This document shows, piece after piece, positions 4,621-12,795 of a DNA stretch of 21,258 bases. Every line of letters begins with the position of its first letter. Position 1 is the stretch's first letter. The notes beneath the pieces are model-generated. The model had not been told where the DNA came from. It worked only from the letters and a program-made list of their open reading frames with translations, and ran no database searches. The DNA comes from a virus (taxonomy: Duplodnaviria > Heunggongvirae > Uroviricota > Caudoviricetes): IMG/VR virus record IMGVR_UViG_2778261303_000012, positions 1 through 21,258 of that record. The stretch is one strand, 5' to 3'. A program made the translations under genes and the position numbers.

Positions 4621-4965
4621 TTACACAAGTATACTTACAACCCCCTCTATAAAACCGATTGCGGTTTGCAACTCCTTCCTAATAGTGCCATCAGAGCACC
4701 TTCTCTTTTTGGCAATAGTGCGTAATGAGATACCAATAACAAAGTGGGCTATGATGAGCTCATATTCCTCTGGTTTATACCTTCTCAACCGAGCCACACA
4801 ACTGTCTATCATAATGCCTTCGTCATCATCACACTGAATCCGTGACTTTTTGCCATGAGGTAAAAGCCCCTTGAAGCCTGCTGCTACCGGCTGCCAGTCC
4901 ACACCACTGTTGTCTGCTGCAGCCCATGCTCCCCAGCGGTCCAATACTTCATACATATCACGCAT
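4621..4965 (-). CDS. lambdoid antitermination protein Q-like (QuuD type)
   Basis: Start moved to ATG 4965 (ORF-track start at 4980 is TTG); GGAG RBS 8 nt upstream. N-terminus MRDMYEVLDRWGAWAA..GFKGLL....KSR.QCDDD matches my recollection of DLP12 QuuD (MRDIQMVLERWGAWAA...). Last gene of the minus-strand early operon. Confidence 0.7.
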   Translation of the reverse strand: MRDMYEVLDRWGAWAAADNSGVDWQPVAAGFKGLLPHGKKSRIQCDDDEGIMIDSCVARLRRYKPEEYELIIAHFVIGISLRTIAKKRRCSDGTIRKELQTAIGFIEGVVSILV

Positions 4966-4983
4966 CAACTTACTCCACAAAAA

Positions 4984-7522: not shown

Positions 7523-8172
7523 GCCGCCATCTCCCTGACCAGTTTTTCCGCCTGCTGGCGAACCTGCGCCAGAAACGCCTCACCACATGCCTCAAGTTCA
7601 TCGCGCCCGATGTAGCTGATTGCCGGTCCCTTCCAGGTCTTGTCAAAAACAGCAATAGCACCAGCGAAAAAAGCTCCTGTCGGCACCTGCTTCTCGTCCT
7701 TCGGGATAAACCAGGCAGGCAGTTCAAAACCAATACGCCCGCGAATAAAAGCAATATGGTCCGCATCTTCCGGCCACCACACTTCGCTGGTGGCAGCTTT
7801 GATCAGGAAAACATAGCGCCCGCCCTTATCACGCATGGCACTGGCATGTTTCATGATGTAACGCATGCCGGTGATGTATTGCCCCTCATGCTGACTGGCG
7901 CGGCTGTATGGAGGATTACCAAAGGCAGCACCTTTAAGCTCCGCAAGACGTTCTGACCAGTCATGCGCCAGCGCGTTGTCTTCCGCCGTGTAATACGCGG
8001 CACATTTGGCGTTATCACCGTCAGTGAACAGATCCAGAACAAACGGACCAAACAGGGTGTTAATTCCCCAGAAAATGTTGTCCGGCGTGCGCCACTGATC
8101 GCCCACTTCCTTCAGTTCATGGGCTGGTTTGTTCCGCAGTTCCACCAGCGCCTGGCAATATTTATTACTCAT
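7519..8172 (-). CDS. phage Dam-type DNA N6-adenine methyltransferase
   Basis: 217 aa with FGNPPYSR (NPPY catalytic motif IV) and overall resemblance to phage Dam-family (PF05869-like) enzymes. ATGA overlap with upstream gene. Confidence 0.8.
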   Translation of the reverse strand: MSNKYCQALVELRNKPAHELKEVGDQWRTPDNIFWGINTLFGPFVLDLFTDGDNAKCAAYYTAEDNALAHDWSERLAELKGAAFGNPPYSRASQHEGQYITGMRYIMKHASAMRDKGGRYVFLIKAATSEVWWPEDADHIAFIRGRIGFELPAWFIPKDEKQVPTGAFFAGAIAVFDKTWKGPAISYIGRDELEACGEAFLAQVRQQAEKLVREMAA

Positions 8173-8660
8173 TCAGCCCCCACGTAATTCCCTGACAGAT
8201 ACCACTCTTCACCCGATGCAGAGCGCTTGCTGCTTTGCCGTAAGCACCGCTCACGACGCGCCAGAAAATTGTTTCGTTCTGGCTGGGAGTGGCTTTCACG
8301 GAATGCCGCCATCCACACCGTTGCGGCACGACGGTATAAGCCCCTGGACTCCAGTTCTTCCGCCTGGCGGGTCAGGCACAAAATCACCCGGGGATCGTTA
8401 GTGCCGACATAGAAATTGCGCACAGGTCTGGTTTCACGAACTGGTTGTGGTTCCGGCTCCTGCGCTCTCTCAGTCAGGCGTGGGAAATGTCTGCGTGTAT
8501 CTCCTTCACAACGGTGAGCCACACGCCCACTCTGACGTAACTTGCTTGCTGACTGCAGAACGCGCTGCCGTGAGTAACCTGCAAAAACATCCGCAATGTC
8601 TCCGGAAGTACACCCCGGATGGGCTTCAATGAATTTCTGAACTTCATTCAAAAGACTCAT
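8169..8660 (-). CDS. PerC-domain transcriptional regulator with N-terminal extension
   Basis: C-terminal AEELESRGLYRRAATVWMAAF...ARRERCLRQ matches the PerC/Pch signature (GLW/YRRAA..W ... RR.YC). Start placed at ATG 8660 with GGGGG RBS; a GTG at 8666 is the alternative. Confidence 0.55.
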   Translation of the reverse strand: MSLLNEVQKFIEAHPGCTSGDIADVFAGYSRQRVLQSASKLRQSGRVAHRCEGDTRRHFPRLTERAQEPEPQPVRETRPVRNFYVGTNDPRVILCLTRQAEELESRGLYRRAATVWMAAFRESHSQPERNNFLARRERCLRQSSKRSASGEEWYLSGNYVGAE

Positions 8661-8662
8661 GA

Positions 8663-9481
8663 TCACCCCCTGAATCCTGCCGGGATCTGGCTGTAGTCCA
8701 CGTTGTCGTAACTGGCTTTGAAGTACGTGTCCTCGCGTCTGGCTGCAGATACCGCAGGAACTTCCCAGGATTCTTCGAAATGACGATCTGGACCAAAGAA
8801 CGTGACAGCCTGTTTCACAAATTGTGTGCCGCTATTGCCCATCGCAGATACCCAGCCCGCGTAGCGTTTCACACCTTCCAGCATGGTTTCGGGGTTTACC
8901 CCCTCGTTCAAACGGGCTTTCCAGACTTTGAAGGCTGCAGATTTTGAATTGCCACCAGCACGTTTGGGATATGCCAGCCATGCCTGCTCAAACTCCGGAG
9001 AGTATTCCGGTCGGTTTGAACGAACTAGCACGGACTCATCAACTGATGCACCAACAGCTATTGGTTCATTGACTGGTTCTTTGACTGGTTCAAAAGAGTG
9101 ACTGGTTCTGGGTGAATCTCCTGCACTACCCCCTGGTGCAACTCCTGCACTACCTGGTGAATTTGCTGCACCAGATAGTGAATTATTTGCACTACCCCCT
9201 AGTGAATCTCCTGCACCATCCAGATGAAGGAGATAGATATTACTTGAGTTACCTTTTTCACCTTTCCGGGTGACTTTTTTTACCAGCCCGGACTCACAGA
9301 GGGCCGCAATATGATTCATCACAGAACGTTTGCTAATCTCGCACTGATCAGCGATATGCTGATAGCTGGGCCAGCACTCGCCCTGATCGCTGGCATTATC
9401 AGCCAGCTTAATCAGAACCAGTTTTCGCAATGGATTTCCCACTCGAATTTTCATCGCTTTAACCATCAGCTCCATACTCAT
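8663..9481 (-). CDS. phage replication initiator-like protein (N-terminal wHTH, low-complexity linker, C-terminal domain)
   Basis: 272 aa, GGAGG RBS. N-terminal HTH-like region (KLVLIKLADNASDQGECWPSYQHIADQCEISKRSVMNHIAAL); central Gly/Ser/Ala-rich linker encoded by tandem DNA repeats; position between Rha and the downstream early genes is typical of a lambdoid replication module. No P/DnaC-like partner gene seen. Confidence 0.65.
   Translation of the reverse strand: MSMELMVKAMKIRVGNPLRKLVLIKLADNASDQGECWPSYQHIADQCEISKRSVMNHIAALCESGLVKKVTRKGEKGNSSNIYLLHLDGAGDSLGGSANNSLSGAANSPGSAGVAPGGSAGDSPRTSHSFEPVKEPVNEPIAVGASVDESVLVRSNRPEYSPEFEQAWLAYPKRAGGNSKSAAFKVWKARLNEGVNPETMLEGVKRYAGWVSAMGNSGTQFVKQAVTFFGPDRHFEESWEVPAVSAARREDTYFKASYDNVDYSQIPAGFRG
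9068..9225. repeat. iteron-like imperfect direct repeats inside the replication gene (candidate ori)
   Basis: GACTGGTTC repeated three times (about 9071, 9083, 9100), then four copies of (a/g)GTGAAT(c/t)T..(c/t)TGCAC (about 9110, 9165, 9177, 9201), plus repeated CTCCTGCACTACC; an AT-richer stretch follows at 9225..9285. Confidence 0.5.
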
Positions 9482-9702
9482 GCAGCACCTCCGAGATGCT
9501 TCATGTTTTTTCCGGAGCGAAAGGCTATAAGCGGCATACTGACGCGGTAACTACGGCCCAGCGGTTCACAAATCACCTTCTGACATTCACGGTCAACCAG
9601 GCTAACACGTAGAACATGCCCTTCAGGTGTGGTGTACCACTGACCCGGACGAGGACAACGGAAAGTCTGATTGGTAAACCGTTTGAAAATATTCCGGATC
9701 AT
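9478..9702 (-). CDS. hypothetical 74-aa protein, translationally coupled between rha and the replication gene
   Basis: ATGA overlaps at both ends (Rha stop / its ATG at 9699..9702; its stop / replication-gene ATG at 9478..9481). Contains a CxxxP...C pattern; no family recognised. Confidence 0.5.
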   Translation of the reverse strand: MIRNIFKRFTNQTFRCPRPGQWYTTPEGHVLRVSLVDRECQKVICEPLGRSYRVSMPLIAFRSGKNMKHLGGAA

Positions 9703-10256
9703 TTGCGCCCCCTTACCTCTGAAGGGTTCAGCAACAAATTTATGAGGCAGGCCAGTGCCGAAGCATCATTAATATAGTCATACAAGCTAACAGCCAGCGG
9801 AGATTCGGCTTTTGCCAACATAGGATAAAGCTGCTGCAGCCAGACCTGATGAATTGATGAAATGTAGGAATAGAGAACGCTGGCGTTATGTGCAACGTCG
9901 CTCAGTACAGAGGGCTTTGAAAGCTGTTTCTCCATCTGGTTAAAGGCATTGATGTATGCCTCTTTGAACTGGGCAGCACGTTTACCCGTGAAACCCATAG
10001 CAAGAAACGCAAAGCCGTCGCGAGTGATTTGATAGCAAGGAAGCTTGCGTGTACCACCGTTCGGTTGATTTACCGAAATAGATGTCTCCGCAAAATTGCG
10101 GGCACAAAACTCAGGGGAACAATCCAGAGTACGGATCTTTTTCAGCACATCGTCGTGACGCTTGGAGAAGAAGTTTGCAACAGCTAAAGAAGTGGTAACG
10201 GCTTGGCCGTTGTCAATGGTGATTTCAGGTTGAGTAAGGGCTGGGATCGTAGCCAT
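9699..10256 (-). CDS. Rha-family phage regulatory protein
   Basis: Start set at ATG 10256 (GGAGG RBS 8 nt upstream), giving 185 aa: MATIPALTQPEITIDNGQAVTTSLAVANFFSKRHDDVLKKIRTL...GTRKLPCYQITRDGFAFLAMGFTGKRAAQFKEAYINAF is the Phage_pRha signature. The 499-aa ORF in the track is a read-through artefact. Confidence 0.8.
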   Translation of the reverse strand: MATIPALTQPEITIDNGQAVTTSLAVANFFSKRHDDVLKKIRTLDCSPEFCARNFAETSISVNQPNGGTRKLPCYQITRDGFAFLAMGFTGKRAAQFKEAYINAFNQMEKQLSKPSVLSDVAHNASVLYSYISSIHQVWLQQLYPMLAKAESPLAVSLYDYINDASALACLINLLLNPSEVRGRK

Positions 10257-10586
10257 GATGGCAGCCTCCGTTGACAGTGAAAAACTTCCACCACCGGAAA
10301 CGCCAATTTCACTGGTGGTGAACTGGACGGGGTTGGCGTAACCGGCGTCAACGGAGACCGGCGCACCTTTCGGTGCCCCCGTCCAGCCCACCATAATCTG
10401 GATGTGAACAAATGCGGACGATAAAAAAGACGCTGGCGCGTCATACATCGCCGTTGACAATTTCAGGACGCCAATCCCGGCACCTGATTTTTCAGGTGCT
10501 GAAGCAGTGTATACTCGAAATAAATCATGATCAATAATGATGCGAGGATGGGGGTTAACCGTTATCTCAAAATAAGGAGATACAAC

Positions 10587-10928
10587 GTGAGATACCAACT
10601 TTTGGCTAACAGCAGCAGAGGTGATGGTTTTTACGATGTAACCATCAGCGATAATAGCGGCAACCTCGAAATAGAATGCACTTGTATGGCTGGTGAAATG
10701 GGTACAATGTGTAAGCACCGTATTGCCGTTATTACAGGAAAATATGGAAATATCATAGATATTGATGATCCTGAAAACGCCGATGCAAAACTGGCAACCG
10801 ACCTGATTGCTAAATATGGAATTACAGAGCAATACCTTGCTCTTGCTAAAGAACTCGAAGACCTGAAAAAGAGGTTCAAGGTTGAAGAAAAGGCTATCAA
10901 ACTGAGAATTAATGCCTTGGCAGGGTAA
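10587..10928 (+). CDS. small SWIM-type zinc-finger protein, antisense moron within the early operon
   Basis: Start at GTG 10587 preceded by AAGGAG with 7-nt spacing; 113 aa. Contains CTCMAGEMGTMCKHRIAV, i.e. CxC-x9-CKHxxAV, the canonical SWIM zinc-finger pattern. Lower GC than flanking genes and opposite orientation. Confidence 0.6.
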   Translation: MRYQLLANSSRGDGFYDVTISDNSGNLEIECTCMAGEMGTMCKHRIAVITGKYGNIIDIDDPENADAKLATDLIAKYGITEQYLALAKELEDLKKRFKVEEKAIKLRINALAG

Positions 10929-10965
10929 GCTCTCAGTTAAAATTTGTTTCATTTGGTTAGCTCTC

Positions 10966-11198
10966 ATCCTTCCCCTTACGGCAGAAGAGTTCAGTAAAGA
11001 ATTGATTAAACCAGCAAGCGCCGCTGCGTCATTGATGCGGTCATAAAGGCAATTCAGGCCCACAGTCAGGTAAAATTCTCTGTGGTTAATTACAGCCAGG
11101 TGATTTAGTAATCTGCATTCATGCCGTAACAACAGATGTTCAGAGACGCAGACCACCAGCTGTTGCGACAAACGGTTATTTGCCGTTAAACTGTTCAT
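10966..11198 (-). other. short ORF / relic resembling the 3' end of rha, translationally coupled to the CII-like gene
   Basis: ATG at 11198 overlaps the CII-like stop (ATGA). Encoded ...LYDRINDAAALAGLINSLLNSSAVRGR parallels the Rha C-terminus ...LYDYINDASALACLINLLLNPSEVRGRK, and the DNA at 10967..11060 is about 70% similar to 9705..9800. The reading frame then runs open across the antisense of the SWIM gene, so its true end is unclear. Confidence 0.35.
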
Positions 11199-12102: not shown

Positions 12103-12795
12103 ATGAACATAGGAAATCGAGTCAGACAACTTCGCCAGGCGAAGAACATGAAAATCGCCGATCTCGCTGAAGCAATAGGAGTGGATGCGGCGAATATCTC
12201 ACGCCTGGAAACAGGTAAGCAGAAACAATTCACTGAACAAGCCCTGAGTAATATTGCCAGGAGCTTAGGTGTTGATATAGCTGATCTCTTTACCTCAGAC
12301 TTCAAAAGTAATACTGTATGTAAAAACAGTATTAGTGAGGATGTTGCGCAGGTGAAGGATGTATTCCGTATTGAAATGCTGGATGTCAGTGCCAGTGCGG
12401 GAAATGGCCTTATCCAGGGCGGTGATGTCATTGATGTGATTCATGCCATTGAATACAGAACTGATAATGCTGTATCGATGTTTGCCGGACGGCCAGCCAA
12501 TCACATTAAAGTTATCAACGTTCGTGGGGACAGTATGTGTCCAACCATTGAGCCAGGAGATCTCATCTTCGTTGATGTCAGTATCAATCAGTTTGATGGA
12601 GATGGTATCTATGTATTTGGTTTTGATGATAAAATTTATGTCAAACGACTACAAATGATACCTGACAAACTACTGGTGATTTCTGATAACCAGATTTACC
12701 GTGAATGGGGAATTACCAGCGAAAATGAACACCGGTTTATGGTCTTTGGAAAGGTCTTAATCAGCCAGTCACAAACCCTTAAGCGACACAATTAA
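12103..12795 (+). CDS. CI-type prophage repressor (HTH_XRE + S24 LexA-like autopeptidase)
   Basis: 230 aa. N-terminal HTH (RVRQLRQAKNMKIADLAEAIGVDAANISRLETGKQ); C-terminal S24 fold with catalytic Ser in VRGDSMCPTIEPGD and Lys in YVKRL; candidate Ala-Gly cleavage site in SASAGNG. Confidence 0.85.
   Translation: MNIGNRVRQLRQAKNMKIADLAEAIGVDAANISRLETGKQKQFTEQALSNIARSLGVDIADLFTSDFKSNTVCKNSISEDVAQVKDVFRIEMLDVSASAGNGLIQGGDVIDVIHAIEYRTDNAVSMFAGRPANHIKVINVRGDSMCPTIEPGDLIFVDVSINQFDGDGIYVFGFDDKIYVKRLQMIPDKLLVISDNQIYREWGITSENEHRFMVFGKVLISQSQTLKRHN
12309..12334. promoter_or_regulatory. LexA-box-like palindrome inside the cI coding sequence
   Basis: TAATACTGT-ATGTAAAA-ACAGTATTA: perfect 9-bp inverted arms with CTGT-N8-ACAG geometry; the core TACTGTATGTAAAAACAGTA matches the E. 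coli SOS box consensus TACTGTATATATATACAGTA at 16 of 20 positions. Confidence 0.45.

Follow-up and report, generated by a model that had tools for sequence, protein, structure and literature searches.

The replication origin of phage lambda lies in the middle of the gene for its own initiator, and a direct check of the lambda sequence gave four 18-bp dyad iterons at 39034-39118 inside O, then a tract of 75% A+T and then gene P. Iteron number varies between relatives, such as lambda and the six-iteron origins of the Shiga toxin (Stx) phages 933W and P27, and this alters the length of the protein (PMC7466680). P22 and phage L have iterons of their own inside gene 18, and the specificities of their initiators and origins are linked (bioRxiv 10.1101/2020.10.05.325894). 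These precedents bear on a 21,258-nucleotide stretch of viral DNA (IMG/VR record IMGVR_UViG_2778261303_000012, positions 1 to 21,258; hereafter the window), in which short repeats are packed into the middle of a putative initiator gene on the minus strand. Segment 9058-9216, whose origin activity we infer, very probably serves an SfV-type lambdoid prophage as its origin of replication and is placed within the prophage's own initiator gene. While the principle of such a location is known, for this very common initiator family the origin is newly proposed here.

Iterons within the initiator gene

The gene in question is 99.1% identical in nucleotides to orf39 of the Shigella phage SfV, a 'replication protein' (megablast with 8663-9481), and 97-98% identical to the genes of mEp460, cdtI and Stx2c- and Stx2a-converting phages. 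Its product matched Pfam HTH_36 (PF13730) at the N-terminus with 44.1 bits, the cut-off being 25 (E=1.8e-11), and PHROG 270, 'replication initiation protein', over amino acids (aa) 3-271 (E=5e-87); a score for PF13730 above the cut-off and a match to the PHROG 270 profile were the two features by which HTH_36 phage initiators were recognised. Based on an alignment of 28 sequences, AlphaFold2 modelled the N-terminal domain as three helices with a beta-hairpin wing. The earlier note on this DNA, made from the sequence alone, had placed two families of repeats in the linker of a putative initiator, and the HTH_36 and PHROG 270 matches, together with the disorder predicted for the linker, agree with that placement. 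The features on which the argument turns are these, in gene order:

8663-9481, minus strand: replication initiator gene, 272 aa (open reading frame (ORF) list, megablast, Pfam, PHROG)
9218-9481, minus strand: predicted N-terminal winged-helix DNA-binding domain, aa 1-88 (AlphaFold2, predicted local distance difference test (pLDDT) ~85)
9293-9331, minus strand: predicted recognition helix, aa 51-63 (AlphaFold2)
9014-9208, minus strand: linker, aa 92-156, predicted to be disordered (AlphaFold2 pLDDT <50), housing the iterons and the conserved block
9202-9216, minus strand: iteron 1, GTGCAGGAGATTCAC
9178-9192, minus strand: iteron 2, GTGCAAATAATTCAC
9157-9171, minus strand: iteron 3, GTGCAGCAAATTCAC
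9136-9150, minus strand: iteron 4, GTGCAGGAGTTGCAC
9112-9126, minus strand: iteron 5, GTGCAGGAGATTCAC, abutting the conserved block
9082-9111, minus strand: family-wide conserved block of ~30 nucleotides (nt), CCAGAACCAGTCACTCTTTTGAACCAGTCA on the gene strand, with two GACTGGTTC copies within it
9058-9081, minus strand: 12-nt tandem continuation of the block, GAACCAGTCAAn and then the degenerate GAACCAATAG (Tandem Repeats Finder (TRF) period 12)
8837-9013, minus strand: predicted helical C-terminal domain, aa 157-215 (AlphaFold2, three helices at 162-214)

The iteron pattern GTGMA-N5-TKCAC (GTGMANNNNNTKCAC) occurs five times, with starts at 9112, 9136, 9157, 9178 and 9202, and has no match elsewhere on either strand of the 21-kb window. 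The spacing across 9112-9216 is 24, 21, 21 and 24 bp, i.e., about two helical turns, and TRF reported the same interval as an array of 4.6 copies with a 24-nt period. In shuffled sequence the pattern averaged 0.11 matches, and none of 100 shuffles reached five. The units are imperfect dyads whose symmetry often reaches as far as TAGTGCA...TTCACTA. The array encodes aa 89-124 of the protein, so that five dyad-symmetric direct repeats, where the ori-lambda type calls for at least three, stand in mid-gene between the coding regions of the N-terminal and C-terminal domains. Both repeat families of the earlier note were found where it had put them, although its GTGAAT-n-TGCAC family proved to have five members and not four, the missed copy at 9136 reading GTGCAA.

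Homologues were collected by protein similarity (tblastn, loci L003-L011), and in every one of them three to five dyad repeats followed just after the winged helix. The diverged homologues belong to phages of E. coli, Salmonella, Klebsiella, Vibrio, Aeromonas and Stenotrophomonas. Both the DNA of the repeats and the peptide they encode differ, the linker peptides being unrelated (GSAGDS, PSDKMSP, GGAGAA, TPVPPES, GVVSERH), and the dyad architecture and its phasing are kept, as the following units illustrate:

Vibrio phage D67: GTGAC-N5-GTCAC
Min27: GGGCA-N5-TGCCC
mEp554: GTGTC-N5-GACAC
BUCT708: CTATGC-N9-GCATAG

A larger set of 157 distinct homologues was assembled by scanning viral contigs with the back-translated N-domain peptide, used as a degenerate DNA pattern, and by adding the motif-based loci. 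Within this set each of seven recognised dyad types was confined to linkers whose protein had the matching class of recognition helix, and dyad-type matches beyond the linker were essentially nil; since kinship leaves the sampled sequences without phylogenetic independence, the covariation carries no formal probability. Helices of the form x[KRE]R[ST][VA]..H were paired with GTGMA-N5-TKCAC and those of the form xRSTVKxH with GGGCA-N5-TGCCC; for some helix classes none of the seven was a fit.

Two further lines of evidence are free of this kinship caveat, namely an inverted array and changes in copy number that preserve the reading frame. In L225 (IMGVR_UViG_3300025237_000017) the window iteron, GTGAATCTCCTGCAC, is present five times but inverted relative to the gene and the conserved block, where it encodes ESPALPPSESPAL (ESPAL repeats) in place of GSAGDS; the recognition helix of that protein, SRRSVMDHV, is nearly identical to the SKRSVMNHI of the window. 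Provided that the L225 phage is functional, the iteron array can evidently, to judge from this arrangement, work whichever way it faces relative to the block. As for copy number, 115 of 138 close relatives (near-identical loci found with the N-domain alignment) have five iterons, the number in a few others being six, seven or eight; the eight of phage cdtI are the result of a 66-bp duplication. Alleles in the protein database with one, two or nine iterons extend the range to 1-9, always in frame. Among them, P0029, present on 64 contigs, has two iterons and P0042 has one, while in P0040 a deletion takes out the last iteron together with the block; all three may mark replication-defective prophages. 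The comparison of repeat number and spacing in homologous prophages, which the earlier note had proposed, gave dyad arrays that are kept while their copy number shifts in frame.

Constraint was also apparent among close alleles. Across 65 distinct alleles of 819 nt, 5 of 42 third-codon positions varied in the iterons and the block, compared with 117 of 221 in the rest of the gene. The earlier note had conceded that its case would fall if homologues lacked conservation at the DNA level, and the comparative data and this third-codon constraint clearly speak the other way; its suggestion that the GTGAAT-n-TGCAC units are iterons was borne out in every comparative test.

A conserved block beside the iterons

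The second repeat family of the window, TGACTGGTTC, has three exact copies (9070, 9082 and 9099) and a degenerate fourth at 9058-9067. With one mismatch allowed, GACTGGTTC alone is at chance level (7 of 100 shuffles reach four matches), and its significance derives from the comparative data and not from the statistics of the window. Those data concern the block at 9082-9111, which directly adjoins the last iteron and could be made out in 44 of the 48 helix classes; it was found in 139 phage records, in every case inside this initiator gene family. The peptide xTSHSxEP was encoded by a near-single DNA sequence in 61 of 100 homologues, a set that had been chosen by the N-domain peptide. With one representative per helix class, 96% of the pairs with a common amino acid also had a common codon in the block, as against 38% in the N-terminal domain. 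The block was found in all three reading frames (L226, L247 and L256 read WHQNQS), and amino-acid-altering changes in it far outnumber synonymous ones. A conserved protein motif, RTSHSFEPV, was considered and ruled out by the mostly non-synonymous changes and by the use of other frames in several lineages. The 12-nt tail is present in 2-5 copies among alleles.

On these comparisons, the block is conserved as DNA, whichever iteron type or C-terminal domain accompanies it, and the GACTGGTTC repeats are part of this near-invariant block and not, as the earlier note had supposed, a second, type-specific iteron family. Its most economical reading is as a candidate origin core, a site of opening or of helicase loading, because it flanks the iterons on the side where lambda has its AT tract, contains short direct repeats and is the most AT-rich segment of the family (mean A+T 59%, other segments 45-53%). 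The fuller proposition is a tentative one: that CCAGAACCAGTCACTCTTTTGAACCAGTCA is a universal, frame-independent origin core, used for DNA opening, for helicase loading or as the site of a conserved gamma-proteobacterial factor, and that it also serves as a recombination joint for module swaps.

All copies of the block 10-mer have changed together, from GAACCAGTCA to GAACCTATCA, in L238, L223, L245 and L275, a pattern that, as far as sequence can tell, would reflect either concerted evolution or a co-varying binding factor.

It is also possible, although we consider it doubtful, that the block has no role in initiation and is kept homogeneous by frequent exchange, as a recombination joint and nothing else. 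Natural chimeras give this some weight: in P0066 and P0072 a foreign N-domain with its own iterons is joined to a C-domain of the window type exactly at the block, the C-terminal domains past it are unrelated among classes, and its A+T content is at most marginally raised. Recent exchange, however, would be expected to leave ragged lengths, and the boundaries of the block are identical and sharp in 44 classes from hosts as far apart as Vibrio and Stenotrophomonas. Its position against the last iteron is fixed, and the concerted change of the 10-mer (L238, L223) suggests a repeated site that is recognised as such. Moreover, an origin core and a recombination joint are not mutually exclusive.

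The earlier note had also drawn attention to an AT-richer stretch, which it placed after the repeats:

9217-9285, no strand assigned: AT-richer stretch, encoding the wing of the winged helix

Its composition is indeed higher, albeit weakly, at 62% A+T against 55% in the window, and the stability score of 40-mers peaks there at z = +1.6. It does not follow the repeats, however, for in this minus-strand gene the stretch is upstream of them, on the side opposite to that of lambda. Nor is it conserved in the family, as its counterpart averages 53% A+T over 44 classes, and it is probably not an origin element.

The origin proposal and other explanations

The proposed mechanism has three steps. To judge from the covariation, the N-terminal winged helix would bind the five dyad iterons, probably as a dimer. 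The resulting nucleoprotein complex would destabilise nearby DNA, for which, from its position and the analogy with lambda, the likeliest site would be 9082-9111 together with the 12-mer repeats. The C-terminal helical domain may then recruit a DnaB-type helicase through a DnaC-type loader, both of them here those of the host, as gene content in the window and in relatives suggests. Because the origin would sit in a disordered linker, its DNA would be free to evolve as an array of binding sites, the peptide being a by-product.

The last domain in this scheme is presumed to be a helicase-recruitment module. It matched PHROG 1701, 'DnaD-like helicase loader' (aa 147-249, E 6e-32), and PHROG 9327, 'primosomal protein' (aa 155-253, E 6e-14), and gave no Foldseek match. 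The score of the initiator for DnaD_N (PF21984) was 24.3 bits, with a gathering cut-off of 27, and its Foldseek match to 2v79 was weak (E=0.02). Foldseek matches of the N-domain were weak (E ~1e-2) and of a generic winged-helix kind, including the DnaD N-domain and staphylococcal RepA (RepA_N structures 4pql and 5kbj), and a sequence search of the PDB with the initiator returned chance-level matches only. No partner gene for a helicase loader (P), as the earlier note had observed, and none for a helicase directly follows the initiator; no helicase, loader or primase was found between cI and Q or elsewhere in the window. In Aeromonas phage AsXd-1 and in Stx2_EH1846 the same C-terminal domain is followed by IstB/DnaC-like and DnaB-like genes, and in other relatives of the N-domain DnaB-like or primase-helicase genes follow. 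Since the window encodes neither, and relatives with the same C-domain have DnaC- and DnaB-like genes, use of host DnaB and DnaC by the window phage is a reasonable inference.

In overall design the locus is close to ori-lambda. Both place the origin in the middle of the initiator gene, with dyad iterons 20-24 bp apart between the regions for the N-terminal and C-terminal domains, and both have a second element after the type-specific iterons in the direction of transcription; copy number is variable in the window family as it is in the group of ori-lambda, 933W and P27. The differences are equally plain: the initiator is of Pfam HTH_36 and not Phage_rep_O, the iterons are 5-N5-5 dyads of another sequence, the iterons are followed by a conserved block of ~55% A+T instead of a 75% A+T tract, and no P-type helicase loader gene comes after the initiator. 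The lambda O protein matches PF04492 (Phage_rep_O) only. Homology of the window initiator to O was examined and rejected, there being no PF04492 match and a best BLASTP E value of 0.02 over 22 residues. The likeness to lambda drawn in the earlier note held for the layout and failed for the side of the AT-rich element; it does not extend to kinship with O. P22 and L share with the window a lambdoid early-right-operon initiator with in-gene iterons, but have a DnaB-type helicase gene, gene 12, beside gene 18, which the window lacks, and their repeat sequences are unrelated. With the iteron plasmids (RepA, RepE, TrfA and the staphylococcal RepA_N type) the locus has in common a winged-helix initiator and direct repeats beside a short-repeat unwinding element, here a candidate one; it differs from them in having its origin inside the gene, no DnaA boxes, no reported Rep_3 or RepA_N Pfam match, and dyad iterons, which suggest binding by a dimer. 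The Stx phage replication region 'Eru6' comprises a Rha protein and an HTH_36 protein and has been classified by gene content, with no origin, iterons or block described (PMC8951638); as in the window, a Rha/Ash regulator and then an HTH_36 protein come after cI, and this assignment is by domain content.

Two loci with an unrelated N-terminal part and the same C-terminal domain have mid-gene repeats of their own: CAGAGAATAC with a 12-nt period at 2451-2495 of L292, and GTCACG with a 10-nt period at 1897-2206 of L293. From such sequences, origins inside the initiator gene seem to be general among initiators with this C-domain.

Several observations weigh against the segment being an origin. A lambda-like AT-rich tract is absent and the unwinding site is not evident from composition: the A+T content of the block in the window is 53-57%, where the background is 55% and the tract of lambda has 75%, and the profile of duplex stability contains no marked unwinding element. 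No DnaA box, integration host factor (IHF) consensus or GATC site was found in the origin region. Alleles with one or two iterons persist, which means either that few suffice or that these prophages are defective, and the covariation of helix and dyad is subject to the kinship noted above. In addition, no description of an origin, iterons or block of this family was found in the literature searched, which covered few subscription journals.

Some of these points would sit well with an explanation that we regard as unlikely, in which the repeats are winged-helix sites for regulation (autoregulation, a roadblock to read-through or copy control by handcuffing) and the origin is elsewhere. Iteron arrays of plasmids also mediate copy control and autorepression, and both the want of a strongly AT-rich unwinding element beside the array and the persistence of alleles with one or two iterons are in its favour. 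Against it, the iteron has no further copy in the window, and the chimeras inherit N-domain and iterons as a unit, as expected of an initiator with its cognate origin. Position and geometry, besides, match those of ori-lambda, in which the iterons act as the origin (PMC7466680).

Far less probable is the possibility, raised in the earlier note, that the repeats are codon-level low complexity of a Gly/Ser/Ala-rich linker, made by slippage and devoid of function as DNA. The predicted disorder of the linker is compatible with it, and variation of copy number in frame is what slippage would give. From comparison of the sequences, however, the iterons are DNA elements and not low complexity of this kind, because the dyad type tracks the recognition helix, because the same iteron stands inverted in L225 and encodes another peptide, and because unrelated linker peptides elsewhere retain dyad architecture and phasing; synonymous sites in the iterons, too, vary less than the rest of the gene. 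Scarcely credible, finally, is that the dyads act as mRNA hairpins tuning the translation of the initiator message or its stability, for although the minus-strand fold of 9060-9290 somewhat exceeds that of shuffles in stability (z = -2.6), this excess is trivial for any dyad array and was considered a by-product of the dyads, the arms are just 5 nt, Rfam gave no match beyond chance in the origin region, and neither inversion of the array nor covariation with a DNA-binding helix is expected of RNA.

Neighbouring genes and significance for the family

The initiator belongs to an early-right operon of the lambdoid type. A cI-like repressor gene lies on the plus strand at 12103-12795, and after it the minus strand carries, in order, a cro-like gene, a cII-like gene, a Rha/Ash regulator, a small ORF and the initiator, downstream of which are genes for a PerC-like protein, Dam, a protein with a LexA DNA-binding domain, RusA, KilA-N, DUF968 and Q. 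The first of the downstream genes is:

8169-8666, minus strand: PerC-like gene, overlapping the initiator stop codon (ATGA) here as it does in SfV

In phage cdtI (L002) the PerC-like gene is absent and the initiator leads directly to Dam; because of this absence, the sequences make the PerC-like gene an unlikely replication partner. A scan of 8600-9800 found no promoter, and the single terminator-like hairpin in it (9258-9273, plus strand) was at chance level.

Just upstream of the Rha/Ash regulator gene, Rfam matched a C4 antisense RNA (82 bits, E=5e-16) and the Hfq-binding RNA isrK (73 bits, E=5e-15), at 10311-10398 and 10423-10499, both on the minus strand, which suggests a control module in the operon that uses antisense RNA in the P1/P7 manner. 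The listed 499-aa ORF at 9699-11198 is therefore too long; only its C-terminal ~300 aa match regulator families (Ash at aa 230-325, Rha at aa 335-424). The 21.3 kb contain 11 copies of the Chi octamer, GCTGGTGG, nine of them on the minus strand, where an estimated ~0.65 would be expected for a random 8-mer on both strands:

3133, 5341, 5470, 5741, 6890, 7786, 8142, 8952, 11153, 11505 and 18334: Chi sites, one inside the initiator gene

A DDE transposase domain (DDE_Tnp_1) was noted in a minus-strand ORF at 1344-2078, shortly beyond the Q antiterminator gene (4621-4980), and an insertion sequence may interrupt the late region of this prophage.

An E. coli 'plasmid' of 44.6 kb, circular in its assembly (NZ_CP148393.1; L294), is a complete phage of this type whose initiator has 98.5% aa identity to that of the window. 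On the evidence of the assembly, this circular element is consistent with an active replicon.

The reach of the family gives the proposed origin a broader relevance, as the origin fragment is present in 925 of 5,426 complete E. coli genomes and also in Stx2a and Stx2c phages, the replication of Stx phages having been proposed as a drug target (PMC8044961). The gene is annotated merely as 'helix-turn-helix domain-containing protein', and papers classifying the non-lambda replication regions of Stx phages contain no account of its origin. With a defined origin the annotation of prophages would improve. Such an origin would also open the way to cloning of the replicon and to tests of the replication competence of prophages, e.g., those with one or two iterons against those with five to nine. 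The pairs of helix class and half-site in many natural variants form a data set for the recognition code of winged helices. The invariant block is a testable handle on module exchange within a gene: if its proposed dual role is true, it would let phages swap an N-domain with its iterons against C-domain modules, and it would be a function-anchored example of the conserved 'linker' sequences in the modular theory of phage evolution.

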